Below are positions 8,163-40,848 of a stretch of DNA of 47,222 bases, one piece after another. The number at the start of each line of letters is the position of its first letter. The first letter of the stretch is position 1. The notes under the pieces were generated by a model. It was given only the letters and a program-made list of their open reading frames with translations, was not told the DNA's origin and ran no database searches. The stretch is taken from positions 1-47,222 of IMG/VR virus record IMGVR_UViG_3300000976_000008, one strand, 5' to 3'. The translations under genes were made by a program, and so were the position numbers. This DNA comes from a virus. Lineage: Duplodnaviria; Heunggongvirae; Uroviricota; Caudoviricetes.

Positions 8163-10121
8163 CTACAGATTGCTAACATTTGCTACAGGCAAATCATCTT
8201 CTGTAATGACTTCTTTTTGGTTTTGGTTGCCTTCAGAGCTAGTAGAAGAACCAGCAGTAATGACATCTCTAACTTCTTTAATAGCTTGGTCCCTCGTCTC
8301 TTCATCGATAGACCATTCAACAAGAAGTCCTTTATCATTATTTGGATTATGTATTCCATCAGATGCTGTAGGGTTATCTACTGACAAACCATCTAATTCT
8401 TTACTTTCCAACAAATAAGTATATCCGCTAAGCGGTCTTGATTCTGTCGGGTCCGAATCTTTGCCAAGTCTAGTTCTCCATCGCTGAACTATTTCCATAA
8501 CCTTAGCACGTTTACCCTGTTTCTTATATTCTTGAAGGAGACGTTTCTCAGCTTCGTAATCATAACCTTCAAGATTAGGTATTGGACCTGGCTCATCAGG
8601 TTCTTCCTCACCACCTAATTCATCTCCACCCGCAGGATCACCACCTAATCCTAGGTCATCTTCTCCGCCTTCTAGTCCTGCATCAGCCATATCTGGTTCT
8701 ATGTCGAGACCACCAGGAACTCCGCCACCAGGACCACCTTGGGACTCCTCAGCTTCCACATCTTCAAGTTCTTCAATCTCATCAGGAGAAAGGTCCGTAA
8801 AGTGTGTCACAATCCATTGCTTAGGGAACCAACCCAAATCTTTCAACTCAGCCATGACACCAACTCTGGTCTGCCATGTTTCAATCCTATATAATTCTTC
8901 CATGGCGGAAGTAGCTGTTAGAGCGATCTCGAATCCCTTCAGATCCTCCACAGAATAACCACGAAGGGCCAGATGGATTATTGCAACCTTAGTGAGACCA
9001 GTCGCAACTTCTCTCTGAACCCATTGCACAGCTTTGGCAAATTCAGAATGTGATTGAGATAATGATTTCTCACTCGATTCACCAGATCCTTCACCAATCC
9101 CTACCCTAGCAAAAGGAATTTTAGTAGGTGCGATCATTTTCTTCTTGAAGTATTCAATATCAGCAATCTGGTCAAGGTTCTCAGCACCTGGGAGTGACTC
9201 AATATCAGGTCCAGTACCATCTGGTCTCCTAGGTAAGAAGAAATCATCCTCTTGAATAAGAGGAGAATATCGCTCATCGAAAGTACCAGTGGTAGGATTG
9301 TAGAATCGTTGCCTTTTGAAGTTCCTAGCAATCATTTGCATATATTCTGGAACTTCTTTAGGTGGAATTAATCCCACCGGAATAGTAAATTTCCTCTTCT
9401 CAGGAGCACGAGTAATTCTATAAATAAGTGCTGCATCTTCCATAAGACGCAACTGTTTGAATGCCTTTCGCCCACCATCCAGAATAGCTCTTCCATATGG
9501 ATGATAAATGTTCTCAAATGAAGTTAGACGCAAATGCATCACTTGCCATGGATGCATAAATTGCGGTTCTGGAATCATAGCATCCTGGTAGAAGAATCCT
9601 ACAAGATCGCCAAATCTCGTCTCAATTCGAGTGAAATTATAGACATTCATAAATCGCAATGATGAAACACCATTACGATTGGTTGTAGGGAGAACTTCAA
9701 ATGGCAGATCGCCATACTTGCAGAGATATCTGATTGAAGGTCTACAGAAATTATCCCATAATAGAGTATCAAAGAAAAGCGTTTCTAGCTCTTTCTTCAA
9801 ACGTCTATTTCTAGCACGAATAATTAGTGTATGCTTACGTTCAGGATCAACGAGGCTAGCCTCGTCAGCATATAGGTCCAATGCTAGAGAAATTTCTCCA
9901 GTTTGGTCCATCTGCTCATAATCCTTATACCTCTCCAACCTATTAATTTGTAGATTCGTTTGATCAAGGATAGCGGCTTGCGAATTAAAATCTAGAAATT
10001 CACCGCCAGCAGTCAACTTATCAAGAGCAGGCTGATTCTGAAATACACGTTCTGCTGTGTATATCTGATTAGTTCGAGTCAAAGCCCGAATTCTATCAAA
10101 AACCAGCCAATTGCTAGGCAT
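8163..10121 (-). CDS. gp20: Portal protein, T4 gp20-like
   Basis: RYKDYEQMD..GEISLALDLYADEA, QLRLMEDAALIYRITRAPEKRKF, EDDFFLPRR.G.G..IESLPG.NL.QIADIEYF motifs. Confidence 0.96.
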   Translation of the reverse strand: MPSNWLVFDRIRALTRTNQIYTAERVFQNQPALDKLTAGGEFLDFNSQAAILDQTNLQINRLERYKDYEQMDQTGEISLALDLYADEASLVDPERKHTLIIRARNRRLKKELETLFFDTLLWDNFCRPSIRYLCKYGDLPFEVLPTTNRNGVSSLRFMNVYNFTRIETRFGDLVGFFYQDAMIPEPQFMHPWQVMHLRLTSFENIYHPYGRAILDGGRKAFKQLRLMEDAALIYRITRAPEKRKFTIPVGLIPPKEVPEYMQMIARNFKRQRFYNPTTGTFDERYSPLIQEDDFFLPRRPDGTGPDIESLPGAENLDQIADIEYFKKKMIAPTKIPFARVGIGEGSGESSEKSLSQSHSEFAKAVQWVQREVATGLTKVAIIHLALRGYSVEDLKGFEIALTATSAMEELYRIETWQTRVGVMAELKDLGWFPKQWIVTHFTDLSPDEIEELEDVEAEESQGGPGGGVPGGLDIEPDMADAGLEGGEDDLGLGGDPAGGDELGGEEEPDEPGPIPNLEGYDYEAEKRLLQEYKKQGKRAKVMEIVQRWRTRLGKDSDPTESRPLSGYTYLLESKELDGLSVDNPTASDGIHNPNNDKGLLVEWSIDEETRDQAIKEVRDVITAGSSTSSEGNQNQKEVITEDDLPVANVSNL

Positions 10122-10200: not shown

Positions 10201-12189
10201 TTACTTTTCTTTACGCTGGTAAAAGAATTTCGGAGGAACAACAGTAGGTCCTTGCTGCCCCATCGGGACACCGCCAAGTTGTAAAGTATAAGCATCAATT
10301 TGGCGTTGTGCAGAAACTTCCGGAACATCAGCTGGTGCTAAAGCAACTGGCATCAGTAAGTGCTGCCCACCCTCAGATACATACTTCTGTTGGGCATTTA
10401 GAACAGCTTGGTCAGAAAGGATAACAGGACCGTCCTGACTCTTGAAATTATCGCCAGCACCGAATGGCAATAGGTTACCAGAGTCTATTTGGAATGCGTC
10501 CTGGGTTCCAATCAGGGCTAAACCGCATGCGATCACCAAGTCATCGAAGTTACCAGCACCTTCTTCAGCCTCAGTTTTACCAGTATCCTTACCCATCCTA
10601 TCGCGTTTACGAACATAAGTCTGAAACTGTTTCAACAGTCTCTTACTTCTAATCTGATACCCATCTCCCGGCTTATCTCGAATGAAGTCAAGGAGGAATT
10701 TGTTCATAGCAGGCTTACTGGCCATCGTGGTGGCAAAACCATAAGGAGCAACCTGCATCGCACGAGCATTGCCCTTAGATCCAGGTGCCATAGGCTTATC
10801 ATTGATTCCTTTCTTCCGCCACAATCGAGGATACATCACATCGTATCTCAATTGGTCAATGATAATATCACCACCATTATTACGTTCCACAACAGCCAAA
10901 GCACTATTGTACCACCTACCAATTCTATCAACATACTTGATTAAATCTCTAGGCAAGCATCGAGCCATGAATTCAGCAACTTGCTCCATCGTCTGGATAT
11001 CGAAGACTTCAATAGCACTGTAGTCTCTACCTTTACCAGTCGCAATGTCAACACCCATCACATATGAGTGTGCTGCTTTCCCTCTCTCTATAATCTGATC
11101 TCCTCTCCTCTTTTCAGCGACTGCAGGAACAGGTGGTTCCCACACCCAAAGACCTTCGTCAGGCTGATCAAAGGAGAAATTCAATTCTTCAATATTATGC
11201 GATACTGGGTGCACATAAGTCTGGTGACCAGTCACCACTTGAGGAGCGTCTACCACTGTAGAAGTCATGTAACTCAAGACTTCTGGTGACAAGATAGTAT
11301 TACCAGAACCGATGAAAGAAGCTAGAATTTCCTGCTGGAACTTCCAAGCCTCGCCTTGTTCTTGCAAAGCATCATACTGCTCTTGAAGCCAAGGAGACCA
11401 AAATTGGCCAAATTTCCGAATTTCATCTTTAGTGCGGCATTCTCTAATGCCGTCTCGTGGTGCAATACGCTTTAATTGTCTAGATAGTGGGTCTTTATAT
11501 TCAATGGACCAATCCATGTCCCACCAATTTACAACGATTGGATTGAAACCATTCACGCCAGCTTCAGCATCAGTCATCGTAGACCAATACCAATTACCGA
11601 GACCGTTGGTCGTGCTAATGCAAATAACATTACCACCGTGCTGCAGTGTAGGCCATCCACCAGCCCACATAACATCCATGCCTTGAATGAACGCCGCTTC
11701 GTCAATGATATTCAAAGATGATGCGTTACCACGAAGAACATCAGGGTGGCTAGTAAGAGATTGTATCCTCGACCCGTTAGGGAAAATAATCTCGTGCTCG
11801 TTAGCCTTTTCTGGTTCCCAAACTTCTTGCATCCATTCAGGTAGATGCTCAAATAGAAATTTAACATGGTCTCTTAGAAATCCCATCGCATCTTCATTAC
11901 GACGAGAAACGATGAGAACAGTTTTATGTGGGTGGAACATGGCGAACCAAGTCGCAAATGCTCCAGAGACCTTACTAATACCTGACTGACGACATTTTCT
12001 GAAAATGTTCAGTCTATTCTGACGGAAACACTTAATCGCTCTCCGCTGATAACTAAATGGATAGAATGGTAATATACCAGCAGATGGGTGCTTAAGCTTG
12101 CCAAAGTTTCTAAGAAACCAAGTAGCAGATTTCTGGCAACGCCTGATAACTTCGCGTTGCTGAGAATTTACTTTTTTGCCTTTTCCCAT
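10201..12189 (-). CDS. gp17: Terminase large subunit, T4 gp17-like
   Basis: Walker A region KCRQSGIS, Walker B IIDEAAF, coupling motif ISTTNG, nuclease motif MGVDIATGKGRDYS, VERNN, DDLVIA. Confidence 0.95.
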   Translation of the reverse strand: MGKGKKVNSQQREVIRRCQKSATWFLRNFGKLKHPSAGILPFYPFSYQRRAIKCFRQNRLNIFRKCRQSGISKVSGAFATWFAMFHPHKTVLIVSRRNEDAMGFLRDHVKFLFEHLPEWMQEVWEPEKANEHEIIFPNGSRIQSLTSHPDVLRGNASSLNIIDEAAFIQGMDVMWAGGWPTLQHGGNVICISTTNGLGNWYWSTMTDAEAGVNGFNPIVVNWWDMDWSIEYKDPLSRQLKRIAPRDGIRECRTKDEIRKFGQFWSPWLQEQYDALQEQGEAWKFQQEILASFIGSGNTILSPEVLSYMTSTVVDAPQVVTGHQTYVHPVSHNIEELNFSFDQPDEGLWVWEPPVPAVAEKRRGDQIIERGKAAHSYVMGVDIATGKGRDYSAIEVFDIQTMEQVAEFMARCLPRDLIKYVDRIGRWYNSALAVVERNNGGDIIIDQLRYDVMYPRLWRKKGINDKPMAPGSKGNARAMQVAPYGFATTMASKPAMNKFLLDFIRDKPGDGYQIRSKRLLKQFQTYVRKRDRMGKDTGKTEAEEGAGNFDDLVIACGLALIGTQDAFQIDSGNLLPFGAGDNFKSQDGPVILSDQAVLNAQQKYVSEGGQHLLMPVALAPADVPEVSAQRQIDAYTLQLGGVPMGQQGPTVVPPKFFYQRKEK

Positions 12190-28665: not shown

Positions 28666-31600
28666 TTATCGACCCCACTGGTTCATCTCAGATTCCAAAC
28701 CTTGCTGCTTATCAGCCAGAACTGGAAGATATTGTTGAAGTAACTCGGCAATTGAAGCCATTTCTGATTCACCAGAGCCTGAGATACCCTCAACCTTACT
28801 ATTCAAATCATGTAATTCTTTAGCAATAGTAGCTAATAGAACCGTGTCCGCAGTTTCTTCTATCTCCGCACCAGTATCATTTGCAACTTGAATCTGAGTG
28901 ATAGCTTCAGATTTGATAACTTCATCAATTCCAGCATCTGAAGCAGCCGCCATAGCTGGGACAGCTTTAGTCTCAACAGCAGTTTGAATTCTTTGAGATG
29001 CCGCTTCCAATCGGAATGAGTATTTGTCTAAGGTGTTTGAAACACTTTCCATTTCAGCAGAAAGACTCTGACCAACACCATCAAATTTTAAGATCGCGTC
29101 ACCAAGATTATTCAGAATTTGAGCTAATTCATTAGCTGGTCCTGCTAGTTTCTCAGTCGCACTCTTCATCGATTCAGCAACAGCAGGTAATCTCTTGGCG
29201 AATTTCTCCATCTGCGGGATTGCCAAAATACCTGTTTCTGCCGCTTCTTTCATCGAATTGAACGGGGCATCTTTCATCACTTGGAATGCGTGAGCAATTT
29301 TGCTAACTGCATTACCAATTTTCTCGATCGTTGGGATCGACTTTCTAAACTTATCAAGAGAAGTTTCAAGCCACCACATGCCAGTGTAAATCGCCATCGA
29401 AGCTGGCACTAACCAAATACCAGCTTTGGTCAACATCAATGCAGCTTCTATCAACAAGAATGAAGCCCACGTCACACTTGCTGATCCAGACGCAAGCAAT
29501 GGTCCAGCGGCCATCAAAGCCCCACCAGAATAGTACAACCTATTCGCCGACTCTATGATAAATCTCGTCGAAGATATCATACTAACAGAAGCAAGAGTTA
29601 ACAACAGCACAGCAGAATTGAGAATTACTCCAGCCGATAACAATAACGAAGAACCAAAGATAAGAGCAAATGCCATTTGAATTATTGCGGGAGAGAGTGC
29701 AAAAGCACCGATCACAGCAAACAGTAGAGCACCAACACCGATCGCAAGTCTTACCGCTCCAGCCAAGATCAAAGTACCAGCAGAGATGAAGTTCTGGCCC
29801 ACCGCAACAAAGAGTAAACCAGCCGTGTTCAACATATTTGCAGAAGCGGATATTACTTCAGCACCACCCCACAAAATATTGGATGCAGAAACCAAGATTA
29901 TAGCACCAATCAATAATCCAGTAGAACCAGCAGTTAACCAAACACCAGCTAAAGCAAGAGTCACACTAGCATTGTAAAGTGCATTAATTGAATTAGTGTC
30001 TAACTTTTGGATAGCTTCACTAAGACGCTCCAACGCATCATCTAAAGCACCGCCAGCTTGACCAATCAAATTAGCGGCACGCATTATCGCCTGAGTACCA
30101 GCTAATAACGCAGCACCACCTTCGCCAACCTTCACACCATTATTATAAATAGTGTTCGCAGCACTACTCAAGAAGAACGCACCAACAGCAAACATTGCTG
30201 CACCAGCGACTAATGCAGGACCAGCTACAAGCATCAAGCCAGCAGCTACCGTAATCATCGGAACACCAGCCATCAACATCGACGCACTTGAAAGAATCAT
30301 TTGGCTTGATTCTAACAATGATGATGCAGCAGGTGCTAACATATTAGCTGCGGCTTGCATCGATGTCGCACCACCCAGTAGAAGAGTTCCACCAAGAGTT
30401 AACATACCACCAACAGCAATTGACAATGGTGCAGCAATAGCTAACGCATACATCCCAGCGAGCATCGCAAATGAAGCCGGAACAAAAGCAATTGCAGCAG
30501 CTAATAAGATACCAGAGGCAACCAACATCAACGAAGAACCTATAACCATGCCCCTACCGACATCGATTATAGTTCCAGAATCGAAACTCCCAATAGCTTC
30601 AACAATAGAAGCAAAAGCTGGAGCCAATGCCCATGCAGCCAATGCTACTACGAATAATGCTGCACCAAGGATCAATAAACCAGGAGCACCAATCAACGCA
30701 GCGGCTGAAACAAGCAATAAGCCAGCAGCTACCATAGGTAAGGCTACCCACATAGCCGGAGAGTGTGGACCAATAGCGTCGTGAATCAATTCAAAAGCTT
30801 CAGCGGCCATCTTAAGACCAGCACCCATCAACCAAGCTGCGGCACCAATCATCAAGACAGCGGCACCAATAGCCAATAAAGCAGGTATCACAGGCATCGC
30901 AAGATAGGCTAATCCTACCAGCACCAAGCCCAGAAGTCCAACAGCGGCAACCATCATTAAGATGCCACCAGCCATTTGACCCCAACCAAATTGGAGTAAC
31001 TCTCCGACACCTTTAGCGAAGAAGTAGGCTCCAACACCAGCCATCATTAAAGCCGCACCAAGAGCCAACAATGGAAGCATTACTGGTTGAACAGATTTTC
31101 CAAGAGCACCTAATCCTTGGCCGATAGATGTAAGTAGTTGTGCTATTACAGTTCCAACTGATTGTGCAACAGAAGAGATTATCCCACCAATACTAGCTGC
31201 CATTGATCCCATGGCACTAAACATCGAGGTCAATGCGGCACCAGCACCAGCTAAGCCAGCAAAAGCTGAACCAACAGCTACGATTGAAATAATTATCGCA
31301 CCTAGGAGTCCTAAGAACTCTTCACCAAGCTGTATTATGTCACCAATAATCCAAAGGTTTCGCAACCAATCATAGAATGAAGTAATCCAACCGATTACTG
31401 TGGCGATTGCTCCGGCTAATCTAGCCATCCATTTCAGCATTGGGACTAGAACAATGCCGATCAAAGAAGCAAAGTTCTTGAATATAAGACCTACATTCTC
31501 ATATAAATCTTCTAGAACTCTATTGAACCTTTGAGTAGCTGTAAAACTATCTTCTAAATTCTTTTGGGCTTGCTTCATTATGTCATTGAATGGAACATTT

Positions 31601-32982
31601 CCGCCACCCATTTGGTCACGGAGTTTATCCATCTCAATAGAAAGCATCATGGCTTCAGTAGAAGCGAAGCCCATCGATTTAGAAACAGCCTGAAGTTCTT
31701 TTTGTTTCTCAGCAGAATCCATGCCTGAATTCTGAATTCTATTAAATTCCTTAGAAGCTGCATCACCAGCCTCTACCATAGCACGTTGCATATCTTCAAC
31801 AGAATTGATGGCATCCATACCAGCAGCATCAGCTAATTTATAACTTGCAACCATATCTGTGGCCAACAAGTTCATCTGTGCTCTTGCAACTTCAGCATTA
31901 TAACCAACAGATTCGGCAAATCCACCCATCTGTACTTGGAGTTCGGTGAATTTTTCAACACCAGTATCGCCAAACATAGCCTTCAAATCGGCTACAGATA
32001 CAGTAGAATCACCTAATATATTATTCATCGCCGCAGCTGATAATCCAAATTTCCGCATAGATTCTTGGATTTTATTAAAAGCCAGTTCAGCAGAACCAGC
32101 GTCACCACCTGCTGCTCTCAATCTGCGGGAGTATTCAGCCAATGTATCAATACTGACTCCAGTAACGCGATTCAGCATTACTATCTGTTTAGCATACTTC
32201 CCTATTTCTTCGCGGGGAGTACGCACATCAGCAAGTGCTTTATATGCCGCTACCGATTCAGATTCCAGAATTCCTTGATCAGCAGCCAATTGTCTCGTTT
32301 GTTGAGCTAAGCCTTCCATAGAGCCATATGCCCTATAATTATTCTCAACAAATTGTTCTTGAATTTCGGTGGCTGCAGCAATTGTGTTAGCAATTCTTTC
32401 AAAAGCACGACCTAAGAATCTAACTACAGATAATGATGCCCCAACGGCTTTCGCAACATCATCAAAGGCACTTCCCAGATCCCGGACACTGCCTACTTCA
32501 TCTTCGACAAGACCTAATTCCTCCCTATGAAGGATATTCTTAGTCCTAATCGCATCGCTAATATCTTCGATGCCACTCAGTATATCAGAGGCACCTTCTT
32601 TTTCATTTAGTATATCATCGAGACCTTTTTCTCGAAGATCAGCATGTTCTTCGAGAATTTTCAAAGCTTCTCTCAACGTTCCTAATTGATCTTCAGAAAC
32701 GTCATTCATTTCTCCAAATGATGAAGCAATCGCTTGAGATGTACTATTTATATCACTAGAAATAGAATTTACTGTAACTGCGGAAGCTGCTGCAGCGTTC
32801 AAAGAACTGTCAAGACCCGCTGCAACATCAGTAATACTCCCTAGAGCAGATTGTGCCGCTCCAGATACCTGTTGCTCAACGTCCGTCGCTGATTGCCCAA
32901 ATTGATCCAAAGTGGAAAAGGCTTCTCGCGAATCCAATGCCATCTGAATTGAAAGGGCGTATACGTTTGGGTCAATAGCCAT
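28666..32982 (-). CDS. Tape measure protein (1438 aa)
   Basis: Long Ala/Gly/Leu-rich helical protein with an extended hydrophobic repeat region; immediately upstream of tube initiator and baseplate genes. Confidence 0.88.
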   Translation of the reverse strand: MAIDPNVYALSIQMALDSREAFSTLDQFGQSATDVEQQVSGAAQSALGSITDVAAGLDSSLNAAAASAVTVNSISSDINSTSQAIASSFGEMNDVSEDQLGTLREALKILEEHADLREKGLDDILNEKEGASDILSGIEDISDAIRTKNILHREELGLVEDEVGSVRDLGSAFDDVAKAVGASLSVVRFLGRAFERIANTIAAATEIQEQFVENNYRAYGSMEGLAQQTRQLAADQGILESESVAAYKALADVRTPREEIGKYAKQIVMLNRVTGVSIDTLAEYSRRLRAAGGDAGSAELAFNKIQESMRKFGLSAAAMNNILGDSTVSVADLKAMFGDTGVEKFTELQVQMGGFAESVGYNAEVARAQMNLLATDMVASYKLADAAGMDAINSVEDMQRAMVEAGDAASKEFNRIQNSGMDSAEKQKELQAVSKSMGFASTEAMMLSIEMDKLRDQMGGGNVPFNDIMKQAQKNLEDSFTATQRFNRVLEDLYENVGLIFKNFASLIGIVLVPMLKWMARLAGAIATVIGWITSFYDWLRNLWIIGDIIQLGEEFLGLLGAIIISIVAVGSAFAGLAGAGAALTSMFSAMGSMAASIGGIISSVAQSVGTVIAQLLTSIGQGLGALGKSVQPVMLPLLALGAALMMAGVGAYFFAKGVGELLQFGWGQMAGGILMMVAAVGLLGLVLVGLAYLAMPVIPALLAIGAAVLMIGAAAWLMGAGLKMAAEAFELIHDAIGPHSPAMWVALPMVAAGLLLVSAAALIGAPGLLILGAALFVVALAAWALAPAFASIVEAIGSFDSGTIIDVGRGMVIGSSLMLVASGILLAAAIAFVPASFAMLAGMYALAIAAPLSIAVGGMLTLGGTLLLGGATSMQAAANMLAPAASSLLESSQMILSSASMLMAGVPMITVAAGLMLVAGPALVAGAAMFAVGAFFLSSAANTIYNNGVKVGEGGAALLAGTQAIMRAANLIGQAGGALDDALERLSEAIQKLDTNSINALYNASVTLALAGVWLTAGSTGLLIGAIILVSASNILWGGAEVISASANMLNTAGLLFVAVGQNFISAGTLILAGAVRLAIGVGALLFAVIGAFALSPAIIQMAFALIFGSSLLLSAGVILNSAVLLLTLASVSMISSTRFIIESANRLYYSGGALMAAGPLLASGSASVTWASFLLIEAALMLTKAGIWLVPASMAIYTGMWWLETSLDKFRKSIPTIEKIGNAVSKIAHAFQVMKDAPFNSMKEAAETGILAIPQMEKFAKRLPAVAESMKSATEKLAGPANELAQILNNLGDAILKFDGVGQSLSAEMESVSNTLDKYSFRLEAASQRIQTAVETKAVPAMAAASDAGIDEVIKSEAITQIQVANDTGAEIEETADTVLLATIAKELHDLNSKVEGISGSGESEMASIAELLQQYLPVLADKQQGLESEMNQWGR

Positions 32983-33136: not shown

Positions 33137-33628
33137 ATGACTAGCAACTTACCCTGGACAGAAGAAGAACTCAAAGTCTGGGTTGATTCATTGGATGCAA
33201 TAACTGGTGCCAAAGTAGCAAAGATGGCGAAATTGTGCAAAGCCGATGGTATGAGCACTTTTGAAGCCGTCACTGCGATCAGATACGACATGGAAACAAA
33301 GAAGGCAAAGAAACCAAGTGCCCTCGATGCATTCGCCGAAGAAAATACTCCAAGCTGGACTGAAGAAGAATTAGTCGCTTGGGTCAAAAAGCAAAATCCT
33401 AAGATGCAAGCAGAAATTGCTAGTAAAATCAAAGAATATAGAAGAAGAGGAATGGACCCAGTGATATTCCTCACAAAGGCAAGAGTCGCAGTAGAAGCCA
33501 AACAGGCAGATGAATCAGGACTTAAAGGTCTCTGGAAAATCTTCATGGCGGGTTGGGACGGATGGACAGAAGGTTCAGTCCGAGCCAACAAAGCTGCTGC
33601 TTACCGGAATCTGGCTAACATGAAGTAG
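33137..33628 (+). CDS. Hypothetical protein with two tandem ~65-aa WTEEEL..WV repeats
   Basis: SD-like GAAAGG upstream; LPWTEEELKVWV and PSWTEEELVAWV repeats. Confidence 0.75.
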   Translation: MTSNLPWTEEELKVWVDSLDAITGAKVAKMAKLCKADGMSTFEAVTAIRYDMETKKAKKPSALDAFAEENTPSWTEEELVAWVKKQNPKMQAEIASKIKEYRRRGMDPVIFLTKARVAVEAKQADESGLKGLWKIFMAGWDGWTEGSVRANKAAAYRNLANMK

Positions 33629-34385
33629 GCTGGTCAGCTTTCTTCGGCTTACAAACCCAACATCTTGTTGGTGCTTTGTAACCACTCATTTCGCGTTCTA
33701 CCTGGCACGTGACACAACGCCAACTCCGCGTTGTGTCACCAACTGCGATGCATTCCCAATTGCCTTCTAATCTGCCAATGCATTTACTTGTTTTTGTCTT
33801 ACGCATCTCTCTGCGTGTTATTTTAGCTTGTTCACGACCAAGCCGGTATCTCTCTTTAATGGGAAGACTTAAATACTCCCCTATAACCTGCATATCTTGA
33901 TGCTTGTCATATAATTGGCGAACCCGCTCTCTGGTGACGCCGAAATGCTTGGCCCATCCTGCCATATTATGGGTTTCGCCATTGAATTTCAACAGATTCC
34001 CACATTCGTCGGTTGTTTTCAAGAATCGCCAAGCACCTGGTTTAGGTTTCTCACCATTAAGACCAGTGATCTTCTTACATACAGAATCTTCTTCTTTCCA
34101 AGCGTCTATAACTTCCTTTTTAAATGCTTCACTAGAAGGCCATTCAGAACCTTCATTTGAAAAGATTTTACACCATGCAGAAGGTAAGCCAGTAAGTGGA
34201 TTACAAGTATAACATCGCGGTGCGTTATATACAAATTGCAATGCCGTTGTCTTCTCAGTTTGACATGTGACACAACTAATCACACAAGGAACAGATGTAC
34301 CACCACGTTCGCGATCGATTGAAACAATCTTGAAGTTGTGATAAACATCACCAACAAAATATTTGTAACGACCTGCATTTGTCAT
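33615..34385 (-). CDS. Zn-finger/HTH protein resembling a degenerate HNH homing-endonuclease scaffold
   Basis: Two CxxC..CxxC modules, FNGETHNMAGWAKHFGVTRERVRQL HTH, no intact HNH motif; starts 1 nt after the K+ channel stop. Confidence 0.6.
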   Translation of the reverse strand: MTNAGRYKYFVGDVYHNFKIVSIDRERGGTSVPCVISCVTCQTEKTTALQFVYNAPRCYTCNPLTGLPSAWCKIFSNEGSEWPSSEAFKKEVIDAWKEEDSVCKKITGLNGEKPKPGAWRFLKTTDECGNLLKFNGETHNMAGWAKHFGVTRERVRQLYDKHQDMQVIGEYLSLPIKERYRLGREQAKITRREMRKTKTSKCIGRLEGNWECIAVGDTTRSWRCVTCQVEREMSGYKAPTRCWVCKPKKADQPTSC

Positions 34386-35204
34386 CTATTCATCCATATG
34401 ATAATCGCGTTCCGCCTTCTTCATGAGACGCACTCTCTCGCGTTCTTTCTTCCACTCGTCTAGAGGGTCAACACTTGGGTCGTCCTCTAATGCCTGGACC
34501 GATTCGTGGGCCGAGGAAAAAGCGGAAATCCACATTCCAATAGCCGCAATCATCGGGACCAACATCACTCCCACAAATAACTTCCCACCAAGGGTCACAG
34601 GATAAGCATCACCATATCCAACAGTCGTACCCGTAACCATAGTGAACCAAGCAGCATCAAACAATCCACTAAATGTCTCTGGTTGCGAATCCCTCTCAAG
34701 TTCTAAGCAAACCACGGCAAAGAACAGGTAGAAAATACCCACCGACACCAGTAGTCCCTTGATCGCATAATAAGCCCGATAGAATTTCAAAGCAGTCAAT
34801 TGTAAACCACGACTGTATCTGAAGAATTTCAAAGCCCTCAAAATCCTCAAAGTCCTAACAAGACCGAGATATTCTATTGGGCAGATGAATCCAACCCAAA
34901 AAGGGATAATGGCGATTACATCGATCATACCCATAATATTGAACGGGTAACTTGTGTCCGGAGCATCGTAGTAGAAAGGATTTGATCTCCACCATCTTAC
35001 AAAGACTTCGACCGTAAACAAAATTGCGATGAATCGTTCAGACCATAAGAAAATGTGAGGGGATTCAAAACTGTTCTTCCATCCATTCCGGATACTAAGT
35101 TCTTCCTCGACCAGAAACATTACGATACTGATAATAACCAGCGGTTTCGCCAGCATATCAATAACTCGAATTGTCTTATCCCAAATATCAGCATCGTCGT
35201 ACAT
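34386..35204 (-). CDS. Voltage-gated potassium channel (6-TM, KvAP-like ion transport protein)
   Basis: Selectivity filter TTVGYGD, pore helix AAWFTMVT, S4 VRTLRILRALKFFRYSR, S2 ILFTVEVFVR, S3 IDVIAIIPF. Confidence 0.95.
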   Translation of the reverse strand: MYDDADIWDKTIRVIDMLAKPLVIISIVMFLVEEELSIRNGWKNSFESPHIFLWSERFIAILFTVEVFVRWWRSNPFYYDAPDTSYPFNIMGMIDVIAIIPFWVGFICPIEYLGLVRTLRILRALKFFRYSRGLQLTALKFYRAYYAIKGLLVSVGIFYLFFAVVCLELERDSQPETFSGLFDAAWFTMVTGTTVGYGDAYPVTLGGKLFVGVMLVPMIAAIGMWISAFSSAHESVQALEDDPSVDPLDEWKKERERVRLMKKAERDYHMDE

Positions 35205-35475
35205 TTAAGCATCCCGAATGGACCCTGTCGTATATCATCTGTAGTGATTCAGGGTCATATAGATCGATTGACAATTTATGACCAGCACAGCATGCACACT
35301 GCAAAGTAATGGTATTATTCTCAGCATCAGGTACTAGAAAGTATGGAACAAACTTCATATTGTATGAAGCAGCCATAGCTTTACCATCAGGGTCCCAACA
35401 CATCATTATTCCACTCTCGGCCATCAACCGAAAGTAGAAGTTTATAGTCTTATCTTGAGTGGACTGATAGAGCAT
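35188..35475 (-). CDS. Small hypothetical protein (CACC motif)
   Basis: TAATG coupling at 35473-35477; overlaps the channel start. Confidence 0.6.
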   Translation of the reverse strand: MLYQSTQDKTINFYFRLMAESGIMMCWDPDGKAMAASYNMKFVPYFLVPDAENNTITLQCACCAGHKLSIDLYDPESLQMIYDRVHSGCLNVRRC

Positions 35476-35969
35476 TAAACAGGTTGACCACAGCAATAAG
35501 CGGCAGGTTGTAAAAGCATATCAAATTCCATATTGCAGGATCTGCATTTCCGTTTACTTAATCCTGAATTTGCTAAGATAGTGTGGGACACAGATTGTAC
35601 GAATTGATTTGTAACAGAAGATGCTAGCTGAGCCAGAACACCTTTAAGAAAACCCTCCGCATTCGCGTTCAAATAATCCGTCGCAATTTTCTCAACATCA
35701 AGTTCAGTCATCCATTTGTTAGTAAGCTGGACGACAGATTCTTGCAATCTTGTATTCAATTCCTTGTAAATCATGGCAGTCAGGGGGGACTGTCGAGCGA
35801 TCCAAGGATCTCTGCCATTGTTATGGTTAATGTTTGTCTTGGTGAAATGAGCTAGGACAAGATTTATATGCTTGTCCCATTCATCATCGGTCATCAAATC
35901 AGTATACTTCTGTTTGATTTGAGCAGCGACTCTTTGCTCGATTGATAATGGTTCTTCTTTATCAGTCAT
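35475..35969 (-). CDS. Hypothetical protein with C-terminal Zn-ribbon (CRSC...CC)
   Basis: Coupled to the upstream gene at 35969; terminal CRSCNMEF...YCCGQP. Confidence 0.7.
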   Translation of the reverse strand: MTDKEEPLSIEQRVAAQIKQKYTDLMTDDEWDKHINLVLAHFTKTNINHNNGRDPWIARQSPLTAMIYKELNTRLQESVVQLTNKWMTELDVEKIATDYLNANAEGFLKGVLAQLASSVTNQFVQSVSHTILANSGLSKRKCRSCNMEFDMLLQPAAYCCGQPV

Positions 35970-36817
35970 TATCCGGCAATCTTAAGAAAGGTGATAATAC
36001 TAACGACAGCAAGTATAGCAAAAATGAACCAACCTGAACCACTAGCACCACCACCAATCACGATACTTGGTGCACTCGGTTTCGAGACGGCTATTGGATC
36101 AATCTCATCGAAACCGACCAATTCAACTTCCGCGTCGGTAGCGACTCTTAATTCGCCAGGTGTGATCGTAATATCTGAAAGGCCGATGGAATTCTCAACA
36201 TCGCCATTTTCATTGAGGGATTCGAAAAAGACGGTGGAAGTCTTTTCTGCCGCTCCATCCTCATCGACCTCATCAGGCATGCTAGTAGTCATCGCACCTT
36301 TCAAAACTTCGACGAGTTTATCGTCAAATGTGACTTCAGCCTCTTGAAGCAAAAGCCGTAATGCTGCGAAAGAGTAATTCGCTTTAATCTTCCCGGTAGC
36401 GACATAATTCGTCGTAGTAGTGCCAATCCCCAAGACGCCACCGCGTTTCTTTGCAAATAGAATCTTGAAAGAACGATCATAAGTGTCAGGATAGACCGTG
36501 AATTGCCGACTCTCTTCATCATTTCGAACGAAAATCGGCGATCTCATGAAGCGAGATTCAATATCATATCCCAGACCTACTTCGTCGGGATCTCTCTTAA
36601 CGTCTGGTTTCGGATTTGGTTCAGATGATGACTTTCCAGTTTCGTCAACGACTGTGACGATCTCATCGGAGATCAATTCATGTCGTTCGATGCCAAAAAT
36701 GTAGTAAAACAGTGGAGCAAGAATAACTAGAACCACAGTTCCGCAAACTTTCATGAATTGTCTGCCACCTTCTTCAGCAGCCCCTTCTTTGAAAGCATCT
36801 GTTACATTTTTCGGCAT
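35969..36817 (-). CDS. Membrane protein with N- and C-terminal hydrophobic anchors
   Basis: VCGTVVLVILAPLFYYIFGI and WFIFAILAVVSIITFLKI segments flank an acidic soluble domain. Confidence 0.75.
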   Translation of the reverse strand: MPKNVTDAFKEGAAEEGGRQFMKVCGTVVLVILAPLFYYIFGIERHELISDEIVTVVDETGKSSSEPNPKPDVKRDPDEVGLGYDIESRFMRSPIFVRNDEESRQFTVYPDTYDRSFKILFAKKRGGVLGIGTTTTNYVATGKIKANYSFAALRLLLQEAEVTFDDKLVEVLKGAMTTSMPDEVDEDGAAEKTSTVFFESLNENGDVENSIGLSDITITPGELRVATDAEVELVGFDEIDPIAVSKPSAPSIVIGGGASGSGWFIFAILAVVSIITFLKIAG

Positions 36818-36876
36818 CTTGTTCTTTCTGTTTGTTTGGATATAGAACGACCCCCATTATCGGGGGTCGGTCCATA

Positions 36877-37203
36877 TCAGCCTTCAATAGCTGGTGGGTG
36901 TATCGCAGAGGGAATCTCTGGTGCGACACCGCCAATTTGAACCAAACCCTTTTCCCCAAGCTTCATTCCAGGAACGAAGGTGACGGACTCATCCATCGCT
37001 TCAATGGGGACCTTGCTAATCATCTGTTGCAAGGGCATAGGGTCGGTTAAACTCTGACCAGGATTGGCGGCTACTTCAACATCGGCGAAGACCGTAGTCG
37101 ACACCAACACCAAGCAGCCCATATCGCCCATGTTCTTAGCGAACATTTGGCGGACGACTCTACCATCCCGATCAGTACCAACAATCTTGAAACCGGTCTG
37201 CAC
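36877..37203 (-). CDS. Hypothetical protein coupled to pspA
   Basis: GTG start overlaps the pspA TAG stop (TAGTG at 37201-37205). Confidence 0.65.
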   Translation of the reverse strand: MQTGFKIVGTDRDGRVVRQMFAKNMGDMGCLVLVSTTVFADVEVAANPGQSLTDPMPLQQMISKVPIEAMDESVTFVPGMKLGEKGLVQIGGVAPEIPSAIHPPAIEG

Positions 37204-37883
37204 TAGACCGCACCCTTGTCAGAAGAAGCAGAAGCAGCAGCCATCAGACGTGCAACCTCATCATCGACAGATGCGTCTCCGCTTCCGTACTTCTCTTCGA
37301 GATTCTCAGTATCGTCGGAGCGAAGTTCTTCCCAAGCTTCGGCATCACTCTCAGCGTCTCTCGCAGCTTCTTCGAGATTACCGAGTCGAGCCAGAGGGCC
37401 ACCATCCATACCACTTGCCGACTTGGCGAGATTGGTACGAAGTTGACCACCTGAAATCCGTGCAGCCAGAGTTGCCTGGTTGCTCTTCGCTTTGGCGATC
37501 TTGTTTCTCGCCTGACCAAGTTGCTTCCGGAGACTAGCAACGACATCGTCATTCTTCTGGATCTCGCTAGCGTAGGTCTTCGATTGTGCATCTGCGGCTT
37601 GCTTCTTAGCCACAGCAGAACTCACGTCGGCCTCATTCCCAGCCGCCGCCGCCTTTTGTGCGAGATTACTCCACTTGTCGGCTTCCTTCTCGGAATCCTC
37701 AAGTTGCTTCTTGCGAGTATAGTTCTCTTTCATCAGACGCTGAATGTCAGATTCAAAACCGTTGATCTGCTTCTCAGAGTCGATGATGTCGTACTTTGCA
37801 TCTCGCACAGGATCTCCAATTGCCTCAGCAGCTTCATCCGTCTTTTCACGGAAAAAATTGCCCAATGCTCTAAACAAACTCAT
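37203..37883 (-). CDS. pspA: PspA/IM30 (Vipp1, YjfJ) family protein
   Basis: Amphipathic N-helix MSLFRALGNFFR, DP...L...I.D.EK, long coiled coil, A.KA...GNE, C-terminal L..LE....E..AEA..EL and SVDDEVARL; 226 aa. Confidence 0.9.
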   Translation of the reverse strand: MSLFRALGNFFREKTDEAAEAIGDPVRDAKYDIIDSEKQINGFESDIQRLMKENYTRKKQLEDSEKEADKWSNLAQKAAAAGNEADVSSAVAKKQAADAQSKTYASEIQKNDDVVASLRKQLGQARNKIAKAKSNQATLAARISGGQLRTNLAKSASGMDGGPLARLGNLEEAARDAESDAEAWEELRSDDTENLEEKYGSGDASVDDEVARLMAAASASSDKGAV

Positions 37884-37943: not shown

Positions 37944-38387
37944 TTAAGCTGCGACAGGTGCCTCGCATCCGACTGCAATGACTTCACGTGAACCCTCAAT
38001 CGCCGTGAGAAGCGATTGCATCGCAGCCACGAGTTCTGATTGTTCGAAATCACCCAGAGGAACAGAATCGACAAGAGTGACGACGTACTCCGAAGGACTT
38101 GTGATAGTCCTGTCATCTTTCTCGGTGATCAGCGAAATCGCATAAGGCGAAATCCGGCTGTTCGCGTCCAACGCGGCGAATGCGAATTCGAGCATTCGTT
38201 CTTCGTTGAGTTCTCCCAAAGTTGCCAATTGACACGTGATCTGGAGGTTTTCTCCATCACTCGTCAGAACAACCGGAATTCCTCCATCAAGTCGAACCAG
38301 AACACAAGTATCATCTTGCTTGGCAACGTAGCCAGCTTGTTCAAGTCCAGTGCAAATCTGCGTCAAATTGTCCATCGTCATTCCCAT
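37944..38387 (-). CDS. YjfI (DUF2170) / YbjN-type chaperone-fold protein
   Basis: About 145 aa with the pattern IPVVLT..GE.LQI...L, ALD.N..I.P...I.L, .VPLGD....EL......L; adjacent to pspA as yjfI is to yjfJ. Confidence 0.7.
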   Translation of the reverse strand: MGMTMDNLTQICTGLEQAGYVAKQDDTCVLVRLDGGIPVVLTSDGENLQITCQLATLGELNEERMLEFAFAALDANSRISPYAISLITEKDDRTITSPSEYVVTLVDSVPLGDFEQSELVAAMQSLLTAIEGSREVIAVGCEAPVAA

Positions 38388-38394
38388 TTCGATT

Positions 38395-39075
38395 TCACTT
38401 CTTCACAAGAGTAATGTCGGTTAGGTTGATATTGCTGCCCTGATAGAATGAAACTACCCCACCGACCGATAGAGTTTCACCATATTCGTCAAGCCCGCCA
38501 ACTTCGAGAATCAACAATTCTGGGTCTTCAACCTCAGACATTGTGTGCAATTCTACAACCGTCGCAGGTTGGGGCATTGAAAGACCAGATGGCTTCGGAT
38601 ATTCCCGATATTCGCCGTGCAATTCTCCACATTTCGTGTCGTATTCCACTGGACCATTATCAGAATCCTGTTCCACAAATTCGGTAAACTCCAAGTCGCA
38701 AGGCTTGAAATCGAACTTGTTTTCTGGTTCCTTAAATAACCAACGCATGTCAGCATTCAGCAGATCACCACGAGACATCGGAACTTCGAAGTCATCTGGT
38801 GCCCAATAAATTCTAACATCCTGTTCTTCCCCAACAATCTTCACCAACAAATGCAATTGTGGTGAAGATTCTGGTTGCCCTTTTAAATCTGCAATAATCC
38901 ATTCGCAGATGTTAGTCTGTTCACGTATCTTTCGAATACGCTCAACTTCTAACTGCAACCCCTCCGTGGCACCCGCGACTCCAGCCTCCATCAAATCCTT
39001 GATGGTCTGCTCATCTGAGAGACAAACAAAATCCCCCACAGCCACTTCTGCCACACGTTCTTTAGTCTCAGCCAT
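38395..39075 (-). CDS. DUF4178 / YjfK (DUF2491)-like protein
   Basis: Acidic beta-rich 226 aa starting VAVGDFV.L; ends G..I.L.DI.L; in the pspA/DUF350 context. SD GAGG before ATG 39075. Confidence 0.6.
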   Translation of the reverse strand: MAETKERVAEVAVGDFVCLSDEQTIKDLMEAGVAGATEGLQLEVERIRKIREQTNICEWIIADLKGQPESSPQLHLLVKIVGEEQDVRIYWAPDDFEVPMSRGDLLNADMRWLFKEPENKFDFKPCDLEFTEFVEQDSDNGPVEYDTKCGELHGEYREYPKPSGLSMPQPATVVELHTMSEVEDPELLILEVGGLDEYGETLSVGGVVSFYQGSNINLTDITLVKK

Positions 39076-39083
39076 CGTTACCT

Positions 39084-39797
39084 CTAGTTGAAAAGGATAG
39101 CACCAATAACAATGCAAACGATCAGAGCAAGTCCGAGGATCACGAGAAAACTAAGAGCACCAGACCCACTATCGACATAGGTCACAGAACCAGGCCGGTC
39201 GTAATAATAATTATTCCTGCTCATGAGAGTATTCATCATTACCATATCAGACATTGCGTCGTACATCATCCAAGACCCACTCGGACCCATGTAACCGTAC
39301 CCACCGTACTGTTGATTATATGACACATTGTAGGTATTCCCGCCAACTTTCGTAGATTGCGGGATGTGCGAAGGACGAGTAGCAGGCTTCGAAGTGTACT
39401 TGGATTTGTACTTGCCAGCATTCTTCGCCTTGAACGACGCAGTCGCATCAGCTTTGGACTTGTAGGCAGTACCAGAAGCCTTTGCTTTGTTGTAGGCTTT
39501 CGTGTCGGCAGCACTTCGTTTCGCCGTCCTAGATGAAGAAGAACCTGACCGAGAAGTAGCACTGCTACTTCGCTTACTACCCCAGGTAGATGATGTCGAT
39601 TTCTTCGAACCACCCCAACTGGACGTCCTAGAGCTACTGCTTCGACGACTGCTGCTTCGACCCCAACCGCTGCTTCGGCTACTGCTTCGACTGAAACTGC
39701 TTCGACCTCTGCCGCGTGCGAATGCGTCACCGACGCCCATCGCACCAATAAAGATGGCAAAAACCAAAACGAACTTAAAGAATTTCATGAATCTCAT
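39084..39797 (-). CDS. Exported Ser/Arg-rich membrane protein, YjfM (DUF1190)-like
   Basis: Signal peptide ending AFA, RSSS-repeat region, WMMY.AM..M.MMN.LM motif, C-terminal TM helix; SD AAGGA. Confidence 0.6.
   Translation of the reverse strand: MRFMKFFKFVLVFAIFIGAMGVGDAFARGRGRSSFSRSSSRSSGWGRSSSRRSSSSRTSSWGGSKKSTSSTWGSKRSSSATSRSGSSSSRTAKRSAADTKAYNKAKASGTAYKSKADATASFKAKNAGKYKSKYTSKPATRPSHIPQSTKVGGNTYNVSYNQQYGGYGYMGPSGSWMMYDAMSDMVMMNTLMSRNNYYYDRPGSVTYVDSGSGALSFLVILGLALIVCIVIGAILFN
39626..39707 (-). repeat. Short CTGCTTCG repeats (5 copies, + strand) encoding Arg-Ser-Ser units
   Basis: ctgcttcg recurs within 39637-39707 inside the SR-rich gene. Confidence 0.75.
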
Positions 39798-39844
39798 GTG
39801 TGTTTCCTTCCGGAGTTTGAGTTGCTTATAACGGTAGCAACTAA

Positions 39845-40720
39845 TTAGATGGCCACGGCGACCGAGAAAGCCCAAGAGAGGGCAACGAAAGTGGCAGCGG
39901 CGACAGCACCAGCCGCAGGATTCTTATCAATAGCAATTTCCTTCGAAAGCTTCTCCGAAGGCAAGAAGAGTTTATCAGCAATGACTCGCATCGAAACGAG
40001 CAACAACATACCGACAGCAGCGATTGAGACCGTAGGAATCAGTTCGGCGACAATGTTGCTACCAGCACCAACCAGAGCCGTCTTCATGATGATTCCACAA
40101 CCGACCAAGAAACCGCCGAAAGAGAGACCAGCAGCTAAATTGTCGTCGTTTTCAATCACGTCATGAACGTCGTAAGAAGTGATCTTCTGGAAGACGAAGC
40201 CTCCAAGAACCAGCATCACTTGTCCGATAGCCCAATAAACCAAAAGATCGACGATACCGTGGCCCCACGAGAGTGAATCACCCGTCAAAGCACCGGCGAT
40301 AATCAACCCTGTCGCAATAGAGCTACCCGCCACCACGAAAGCAGTTCCGCAATTCCGATCAGTTGTGATCTCTTTCTGAATGCTGAACTTGTACAAAATC
40401 GATTTGTCGTTCACCCAAACACTCAGTCTCAGTAAGACGACTGAGAGAAGACCGTAAACCCCAAGTGAAAGGAAAGATTCCCCAACCGAATCGCCACCGA
40501 CACCGTAAGTTGTTCCGCCGAGTGCGATAACGAGTCCGATCATGTAACCAGCAAATGCGATCCCGAAAGCAGGATTGTCCCGCTCAGTGAGTTCGTCATC
40601 GAACGAGAAGCTTGTAGTCTTGTCGAAAACAATTCGACTCAGAAGAATGAATCCGACGATCACCGAGAAAAACGGCACCGCGTAGAAAATCTTCTGCAAA
40701 GTAATCCAAAAATCGCCCAT
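39845..40720 (-). CDS. DUF350 (YjfL / UPF0719) inner-membrane protein, tandem-domain form
   Basis: Multiple TM helices with repeated EL/EI....DN.A.G....G motifs (DELTERDNPAFG, KEITTDRNCGTA, DVIENDDNLAAG, KEIAIDKNPAAG); AGGA before ATG 40720. Confidence 0.88.
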   Translation of the reverse strand: MGDFWITLQKIFYAVPFFSVIVGFILLSRIVFDKTTSFSFDDELTERDNPAFGIAFAGYMIGLVIALGGTTYGVGGDSVGESFLSLGVYGLLSVVLLRLSVWVNDKSILYKFSIQKEITTDRNCGTAFVVAGSSIATGLIIAGALTGDSLSWGHGIVDLLVYWAIGQVMLVLGGFVFQKITSYDVHDVIENDDNLAAGLSFGGFLVGCGIIMKTALVGAGSNIVAELIPTVSIAAVGMLLLVSMRVIADKLFLPSEKLSKEIAIDKNPAAGAVAAATFVALSWAFSVAVAI

Positions 40721-40848
40721 GTCGAGAGTCCTGTTCATCCTATTAGAGTTGGTTTGTGGAATAGTTGTTCGCCCCATGTTGCGAGCAAACGATCCCCGTA
40801 AACCTTAGAGATAGGCGAGTAGGGGAATTGTACCCCTAAAATACACCG

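Follow-up and report, generated by a model that had tools for sequence, protein, structure and literature searches.

A Kv-type potassium channel gene in a jumbo phage genome

We analyzed a window of 47,222 nucleotides, the first 47 kb of the 408,349-bp tailed phage record IMGVR_UViG_3300000976_000008 of IMG/VR, and in particular a gene on its minus strand (positions 34386 to 35204) that encodes a voltage-gated potassium (Kv) type channel. The gene lies between the primase gene and the tail and baseplate block, downstream of a gene for PspA on the same strand. A preliminary description of this locus had claimed a complete Kv-type channel, and the open reading frame (ORF), the six helices, the regularly spaced arginine and lysine residues of S4 and the TVGYGD filter were all found in the predicted product (Table 1). 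The analysis of sequence and models thus confirms a six-helix Kv-type channel with every hallmark of the family, which presumably conducts potassium.

Profile searches placed the product among the ion transport proteins. The Pfam family Ion_trans (PF00520) matched residues 22-225 over profile positions 11-225 of 241 with an E-value of 2.3e-22 and 79.8 bits, against a cut-off of 25, and Ion_trans_2 matched the pore (5.6e-13). The PHROG profile phrog_7872 matched residues 14-252 over positions 14-233 of 254 (5e-25). When the sequence was compared with the PDB the ranking was Kv4.2 (9e-20), Kv4.3, Kv1.3, Kv1.2-2.1, Kv2.1, KvAP, MlotiK and KcsA. In S2 the arrangement E56-x6-F63-x2-E66-x3-R70 and in S3 residue D95 are spaced as the outer acidic residue and the phenylalanine, glutamate and aspartate of the charge-transfer centre are in Shaker and Kv1.2; this equivalence rests on the HMMER alignment, which sets the FTVE of the query on the FTVE of Kv4.2, and on established knowledge of Kv1.2. 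The S4 charges, the charge-transfer residues and the filter are invariant across 33 relatives of the channel. A DPxxDP motif after S6 is also invariant in the channels of Bremerella, which come from genomes where the phage PspA query matched nothing. Two other identifications were rejected: a minimal channel of the Kcv type, with two transmembrane helices and a pore loop in about 80-130 residues, because the protein has 272 residues and a full S1-S4, and a hyperpolarisation-activated channel of the MVP type (NCBIfam NF040645), because the score was 40.3 bits against an equivalog cut-off of 300.

The AlphaFold2 model of the channel, built on the 33 relatives, has a mean predicted local distance difference test (pLDDT) score of 86.5. 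Its helices correspond to S1 (residues 7-40), S2 (50-73), S3 (90-107), S4 (110-130), a continuous S4-S5 linker and S5 (132-170), the pore helix (181-192), S6 (205-240) and a charged C-terminal helix (247-267), and hydropathy agrees with the model on six transmembrane helices and a re-entrant pore helix between S5 and S6. Foldseek searches with this model returned as top matches only chains of Kv1, Kv4, Kv2, Kv3 and Shaker, with a probability of 1.00 and a TM-score of about 0.6. A four-copy model scored 0.63 against 0.00 for the best control, with run agreement of at least 94% of contacts and a partner pLDDT of at least 66; 20 of 30 proteins solved as same-chain pairs reach the mark used for this score, compared with 1 of the 23 whose solved structure is a single chain. 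In the modelled tetramer, residues 193-199 of the filter lie on the axis and S1 and S4 of one copy pack against S5 of its neighbour, as in a domain-swapped channel. Because Kv tetramers have already been solved, this result may reflect memory, so that assembly as a domain-swapped homotetramer around the filter is indicated by likeness and not proven.

Table 1. Positions of the channel gene, its parts and the accompanying genes and elements in the window
Feature	Position	Strand	Basis and remarks
Major head protein	1856-3460		
Portal	8163-10121		
Large terminase	10201-12189		
Kv-type K+ channel gene, P0001	34386..35204	-	ORF of 272 aa plus stop; Ion_trans/Ion_trans_2; phrog_7872; Kv fold
Charged C-terminal helix, residues 247-267	34404..34466	-	AlphaFold2; preceded by invariant DPxxDP (P243, P247)
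S4-S5 linker and pore domain S5-P-S6, residues 132-240	34485..34811	-	AlphaFold2, Foldseek; filter and S6 contacts at the tetramer axis
Selectivity filter TVGYGD, residues 194-199	34608..34625	-	Translation
S4 helix, six basic residues at every third position	34809..34877	-	Translation; R117, R120, R123, K126, R129, R132
Voltage-sensor domain S1-S4, residues 7-130	34815..35186	-	AlphaFold2 helices; E33, E56, F63, E66, R70 and D95 invariant in relatives
Three window-specific ORFs (282, 164 and 102 aa)	35188..36817	-	Packed between hairpin and Kv gene; no homologues in related loci
GC-rich hairpin (CGACCCCCG...CGGGGGTCG) followed by CTATATC	36848..36869	-	Terminator-like or regulatory element; shared with L002
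orf108, phage-only insert between PspA and Kv	36877..37203	-	In L002, L010/L011 and P0004 contig; not in cellular operons
PspA/IM30 gene, operon gene 5	37203..37883	-	PF04012, 4.1e-14, 53.2 bits against a cut-off of 33.9; 61-62% identical to cellular operon PspA
orf147, CesT/YbjN-like chaperone, CesT/Tir-PspA dyad with PspA	37944..38387	-	Predicted fold; 62% identical to L173
orf240, function unassigned	38395..39117	-	53% identical and collinear in L173
orf263, function unassigned	39084..39875	-	48-58% identical to L173; true start perhaps at about 39797
orf310, DUF350 (YjfL-family) membrane protein, operon gene 1	39845..40777	-	PF03994, 1.9e-53; 61% identical to L173

Genomic setting of the channel gene

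CheckV estimated the completeness of the record at 100%, and the record is rated complete. Besides the genes for the major head protein, portal and large terminase the window encodes baseplate wedge and hub proteins, a tape-measure-like giant protein, a helicase, a ribonucleotide reductase and a primase. The claim that the channel gene is phage-borne therefore stands, with head, portal, terminase, baseplate and primase genes in the same window of a complete 408-kb record. The guanine-cytosine (GC) content of the channel gene (0.44) is that of the phage genome (0.43) and not that of the host loci that carry the operon described below (0.56). The same arrangement was found in independent assemblies from different samples, namely L002 (175 kb), L008, L010/L011, L013, L178 and the contig encoding P0004. 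A megablast search of 14.7 kb of structural genes against the INPHARED phages gave zero matches, so the phage has no close cultured relative in that collection.

Several neighbouring genes were recorded alongside. A protein of 1438 residues (28666-32982, minus strand) has a central run of about 900 residues that is nearly continuously hydrophobic and rich in alanine, glycine and leucine; it matched a tape-measure profile only weakly (phrog_167, 4.6e-5), is a candidate membrane-like tape measure, and is kept at 30-50% identity, adjoining the baseplate genes, in all related phage contigs. One base past the stop codon of the channel gene starts orf256 (33615-34385, minus strand), whose product is rich in cysteine with several CxxC pairs and a helix-turn-helix-like stretch; it has no family match and no homologue among the related loci. 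In the related phages L002 (3920-4417 and 10829-11248) and the P0004 contig a small PAS-domain protein is encoded upstream of the primase, and in the same two the channel gene is closely followed by one with a HATPase_c domain, like that of anti-sigma kinases. L008, L178 and the P0004 contig each encode a WGR-domain protein close to the channel.

The channel gene closes a six-gene operon shared with planctomycetes

In the phage the cluster runs on one strand in the order DUF350 gene (orf310), orf263, orf240, the CesT-like orf147, PspA and, last, the Kv gene. The preliminary description had tied the channel to PspA, and this tie was borne out since the two are the last genes of a conserved six-gene operon that is also present on planctomycete chromosomes. 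The operon was found on a contig of 1.83 Mb that encodes Ser/Thr kinases and an extracytoplasmic function (ECF) sigma factor (L173), on a 47-kb contig with PSD/PSCyt genes (L175) and on a 50-kb contig (L179). In all three the order is DUF350, proteins of about 235, 228 and 146 residues, PspA and Ion_trans, in the same orientation as in the phage. Between the phage and L173 the genes are collinear, with identities of 61% for orf310, 48% for orf263, 53% for orf240, 62% for orf147, 61% for PspA and 64% for the channel; the channels of the three cellular operons share 62-67% identity with the phage channel. Nothing further in the L173, L175 and L179 loci matches the phage. The planctomycete operons differ from the phage version in base composition (56% against 43% GC), in a spacer between PspA and Kv of only about 185 nt and in the absence of orf108.

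The product of orf147 gave no Pfam match in a sequence profile search. Its AlphaFold2 model (pLDDT 85.5) retrieved with Foldseek BacA (8q8o, 1.5e-5) as the top match, then YbjN (6vu7) and Tir-CesT (5wez). In Pseudomonas aeruginosa BacA, a member of the YjfI family, precedes the PspA homologue BacB (PMC10948618), and maintenance of the proton-motive force is attributed to PspA (as reviewed in the same paper). A homologue of orf263 also stands upstream of PspA in L016, a distant viral contig.

Operons that combine CesT/Tir, PspA and DUF350 proteins and include a K+ channel were described by Popp, Ravi, Aravind et al. in 2024 (PMC11237479), and the phage module belongs to this CesT/Tir-PspA class, as a variant carried by a phage. 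In both, the gene for a CesT-like chaperone directly precedes that for PspA, and a DUF350 protein and a K+ channel are encoded as well. In the operons of Popp et al., however, which occur in other bacteria, the channel is associated with 'intracellular ligand sensing' and coupled with polyamine metabolism genes, whereas the phage operon encodes a voltage-sensor channel and has neither of these features: a domain search identified no polyamine-metabolism domain in either the phage or the cellular version, and no cytoplasmic ligand domain is present in the channel.

The interval between PspA and the channel varies among phages

In the window four ORFs and a conserved hairpin lie between PspA and the channel gene on the same strand. 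The ORF nearest to PspA, orf108, encodes about 100 residues without a family match and, wherever it is found, lies between PspA and the channel; its product is a candidate phage-specific modulator. The hairpin and the CTATATC that follows it are also found in L002 (9949-9989), there directly upstream of the Kv start codon, and a similar 12-bp hairpin followed by CTATATC and ATG was seen at position 158449 (plus strand) of the phage genome. The remaining three, orf282, orf164 and orf102, abut or overlap one another and the last overlaps the Kv start; the product of orf282 has hydrophobic N- and C-termini. With orf108, the hairpin and the three ORFs between them, co-transcription of the channel with PspA, as proposed in the preliminary description, is no more than possible.

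The link between PspA and Kv is variable in phages. In L178 the channel gene directly follows PspA. In L016, which is 120 kb long, PspA (36% identity) ends 57 bp upstream of Kv (38% identity). In L010/L011 the part from DUF350 to PspA has been lost with orf108 and a channel of 296 residues intact; right after the primase (L010, 9329-9538, and the same in L011) a 57-residue remnant of the PspA C-terminus persists without an ORF. Loss of the Psp genes together with conservation of Kv indicates that the channel is retained for its own sake. Two further large IMG/VR contigs, L014 (340 kb) and L015 (234 kb), encode terminase and head homologues of the phage at 31-43% identity, and their channels group with other planctomycete clades and have no PspA nearby, which suggests that large phages of planctomycetes have acquired this channel family repeatedly. 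In a third, L012 (239 kb, IMG/VR), no homologue of the terminase, portal or head protein of the phage was found, and its phage status is not confirmed.

Cellular relatives and origin of the operon

Relatives of the channel at 53-72% identity form a clade with support of 100 in which phage and cellular copies are mixed. The cellular status of these copies was judged from the neighbouring genes. They include one on a contig of a Rubripirellula metagenome-assembled genome (MAG) with OPT, SDR and PfkB genes, one on a 165-kb contig rich in the planctomycete-specific PSD/PSCyt domains, one from a Blastopirellula MAG and one from a Fuerstiella MAG; complete Bremerella genomes carry copies at about 43% identity. 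The syntenic phage channels fall in one subclade with support of 98-99, which also holds the cellular proteins P0018 and P0009 and the Rubripirellula group. In an approximately unbiased (AU) test on a reduced set of 41 rows, a single phage clade was neither shown nor rejected (p = 0.414).

Among 301 genomes of the order and five planctomycete genomes that carry the channel, PspA matches reached only 21-27% identity and none adjoined a channel; these distant matches occurred in 9 of the 301 sampled genomes, and the distribution in hosts is patchy. A large protein collection yielded PspA relatives at 52-62% identity, and PspA genes at 56-62% identity adjoin channels on L173 and other cellular contigs; a non-host origin of the phage PspA was rejected on the basis of these genes. 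In L179 (1-10300) the genes flanking the operon encode a phage-type integrase, an IS91-like transposase and rve/HTH_Tnp_1 transposases, and identity to the phage is only 37% for PspA, against 67% for the channel. The flanking genes and the unequal identities point to an operon that is mobile and mosaic in hosts.

Since every deep branch holds cellular copies, transfer from host to phage is the more economical reading. Most likely a jumbo phage lineage of Planctomycetota, with Pirellulaceae-like hosts, captured the whole operon from host chromosomes, and the channel would have entered this lineage as the last gene of an operon that is patchy and mobile in hosts. We hold the identity of the channel and this origin, taken together, with high confidence.

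Relation to known potassium channels and to other phage channels

The phage channel shares with the solved Kv channels (KvAP 1orq/2a0l/6uwm, Kv1.2-2.1 2r9r, Kv4.2 7ukf and Shaker 7sip) the helices S1-S6, six S4 charges, the F/E/D centre, the TVGYGD filter, a long S4-S5 linker and a domain swap, the last being on the phage side a feature of the model. It differs from them in sequence (22-28% identity), in having no T1 or other cytoplasmic domain, in a single proline in S6 (P217) in place of PVP, in its own invariant DPxxDP and charged helix, and in being encoded by a phage within a PspA operon.

Channels of the Kcv type from chloroviruses and other algal viruses, and the two-helix channels of phages (PMC6163359), are likewise encoded by viruses and have the canonical GYGD filter. 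They consist, however, of 79-228 residues with two helices and no voltage sensor, and Kcv resides in the virion membrane of a eukaryotic virus. The K+ channels that Greiner et al. (2018, PMC6163359) reported in phages are nearly all of the two-helix kind. Their paper never uses the word 'voltage'. From Lactobacillus phage PLE it mentions a 259-residue protein, said to be 'identical' to an ion transporter of the host and to have four predicted helices. When translated, gp27 of Lactobacillus phage PLE2 (YP_009282368.1) and a protein of Dulem virus 33 (XCD07631.1) were seen to have arginine or lysine at every third position of S4 and a T(V/M)GYGD filter, and they match Ion_trans and phrog_7872 (2e-111 and 6e-36). 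These proteins of about 235-260 residues are phage-encoded like the query and about 27-29% identical to it. They belong, in contrast, to small temperate phages of Firmicutes, where the channel sits in the lysogeny module beside integrase and repressor without a PspA operon, and they have a separate origin, the query grouping with planctomycete proteins in trees. The gp27 gene of PLE2 (L176, 3842-4621) lies between the integrase and a repressor/metalloprotease pair and is therefore probably expressed in lysogens; its product has a C-terminal SHOCT domain (PF09851, 3.9e-7), which Popp et al. (2024) connect with phage shock protein (PSP) systems. Relatives of the channel at 25-37% identity are encoded at about 60 more loci in IMG/VR, most of them on contigs of 20-50 kb.

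The uniqueness implied by the preliminary description was thus overstated, given the phage K+ channels of PMC6163359, the S4-bearing proteins of PLE2 and Dulem virus 33, the family phrog_7872 and the 60 or so IMG/VR loci, and by sequence comparison Kv-like genes were already present in other phage genomes. A literature search returned no paper that recognises a complete Kv channel in a phage as such. A survey by Yuan and Chen of October 2026 (bioRxiv 10.64898/2026.10.24.761521) describes PspA in large-genome phages with membrane-protein neighbours that include DUF350, a Ca2+-ATPase, SPFH, an ATP-binding cassette (ABC) transporter and others; 'potassium', 'voltage' and 'Planctomyc-' are absent from its text. 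What is new here is the host phylum, the jumbo phage of lytic type, the capture of a whole operon, the coupling of Kv with PspA and the evidence of long retention.

A possible role in maintaining the membrane potential

We propose that a functional homotetrameric channel would be made in the infected cell and inserted into the cytoplasmic membrane. Depolarisation, whether from phage-induced envelope damage, from a heavy load of membrane proteins or from a depolarising host defence, would move the S4 charges past the transfer centre formed by F63, E66 and D95 and open the gate. K+ would then leave through the TVGYGD filter down its gradient and draw the potential back to the K+ equilibrium potential, and PspA would meanwhile seal proton leaks. 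Kv and PspA together would keep the cell energised over the long cycle of a jumbo phage and delay premature lysis or abortive collapse; repolarisation would safeguard those steps of infection that consume energy and would work against depolarising defences or a holin that fires too early. This physiological role, in which we infer conduction, gating polarity, timing of expression and function, is offered tentatively, and as a whole the explanation that joins Kv identity, operon capture and a K+ valve opened by depolarisation alongside PspA is the best we have, with its chances still somewhat short of even. The roles raised in the preliminary description, namely tuning of the potential, countering of depolarising defences and exclusion of superinfection, are conjectures of the same kind. 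A broader proposal, which we put forward as speculation, is that the Kv channels of planctomycetes and jumbo phages may form an electrical arm of PspA membrane repair: S4 would sense depolarisation and the K+ current would repolarise the membrane, so that in phages the infected cell is kept electrically alive and depolarising defences are blunted, with the orf108 product retuning the channel. This would be the first control of host membrane voltage by a phage through a true voltage-gated channel, and one that different lineages of jumbo phages acquired more than once.

Several observations weigh against the proposal or parts of it. Gating polarity is not readable from the sequence, and a hyperpolarisation-activated or leak channel would lead to K+ uptake and not to repolarisation. 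PspA and Kv may not act together, as many hosts (L003, L006 and L009) have the channel without a nearby PspA and the phage represented by L010/L011 keeps Kv without PspA. A genome-wide promoter role for CTATATC was rejected, as the motif occurs 27 and 42 times on the two strands with about 40 expected on each. Lastly, phage and cellular channels are interleaved in the clade supported at 98-99, which makes the direction of transfer inside this subclade less certain.

The main alternative, unlikely in our view yet the strongest of those considered, is that the channel supplies K+. The resting potential of bacteria usually lies on the negative side of the K+ equilibrium potential, and an open K+ channel therefore imports K+. 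If the channel were hyperpolarisation-activated or leaky, and hence open at a strongly negative rest, the influx could provide counter-ions and turgor for hundreds of 408-kb genomes. The pairing of a K+ channel with polyamine metabolism in related PspA operons (PMC11237479) and a weak likeness of the channel to the archaeal hyperpolarisation-activated model NF040645 (2.9e-10) fit this idea. The score against that model is nevertheless 40 bits with a cut-off of 300, so that the channel is not a member; its closest solved relatives are the depolarisation-activated Kv1, Kv4 and KvAP, and its model is domain-swapped like them; and the polyamine genes were not found in the phage operon.

A sensor domain that no longer senses voltage is less probable again. 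The channel might instead be gated by lipid packing, tension, PspA or the orf108 product, or be a poorly conducting sensor or scaffold of the Psp response. The short phage-specific orf108 that accompanies the channel in L002, L010/L011 and the P0004 contig is compatible with such gating, as are the invariant DPxxDP motif and the charged C-terminal helix, to which no role is assigned. Gating of KvAP reportedly depends on lipids. The six S4 charges and the full charge-transfer centre are, however, invariant across copies that are only about 40% identical, which is hard to explain without voltage sensing.

Slightly less plausible still is deliberate depolarisation, in which the channel would lower or clamp the potential and thereby block injection of DNA by rival phages, as proposed for chlorovirus Kcv, or time the holin and lysis. 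Chlorovirus Kcv does depolarise its host and has been tied to exclusion (PMC7019647, PMC6163359), and the related channel of temperate Firmicutes phages sits in the lysogeny module, a typical site of exclusion genes. The jumbo phage channel, on the other hand, travels with PspA, which preserves the energisation of the membrane; the same operon serves uninfected hosts, where self-depolarisation has no obvious use; and a tailed phage has no virion membrane with which to deliver a channel at entry.

We also considered whether the gene could be a mere passenger, captured recently with the operon from a host and without a role in the phage. The identity of up to 64-69% to cellular channels (L006, L173 and L179) and the mobility of the L179 operon, with its integrase and transposase flanks, would allow this. 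Yet the channel is kept in at least six diverged phage contigs: pairs of phage channels show a proportion of nonsynonymous differences (pN) of 0.13-0.22 and of synonymous differences (pS) of 0.75-0.90, given as such and not as dN/dS because the synonymous sites are saturated. No viral or cellular copy has lost any of the functional residues, and no pseudogenised copy was seen in the related phages. The channel is, on this comparison, under strong purifying selection in phages. Its composition has moreover equilibrated to that of the phage, it is intact where the Psp genes are deleted, and other jumbo phage contigs hold channels from other planctomycete clades, all of which make a passenger gene very improbable. 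Host contamination or a chimeric assembly, for which one could cite that the nearest named relatives of the channel are proteins of planctomycete MAGs, is barely credible in view of the phage genes on both flanks of the locus, the identical junctions in independent assemblies and a channel GC content that fits the phage.

Significance for phage and planctomycete biology

Work on viral K+ channels has centred on the two-helix proteins of algal viruses, and S4-bearing channels already sit unrecognised in phage databases under phrog_7872. The phage Kv channel, with 272 residues and without T1, provides a small natural channel for biophysics and a testable entry to two questions, the role of bacterial Kv channels and the management of host membrane potential by phages. 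The genetic coupling of Kv with PspA in both cells and phages suggests a functional link, hitherto undescribed, of voltage sensing with membrane repair. Since depolarisation is what kills in many abortive-infection systems, a repolarising channel would, if the proposal is true, represent a new kind of counter-defence. The operon and its channel suggest that the electrical state of a cell is under phage control during infection.

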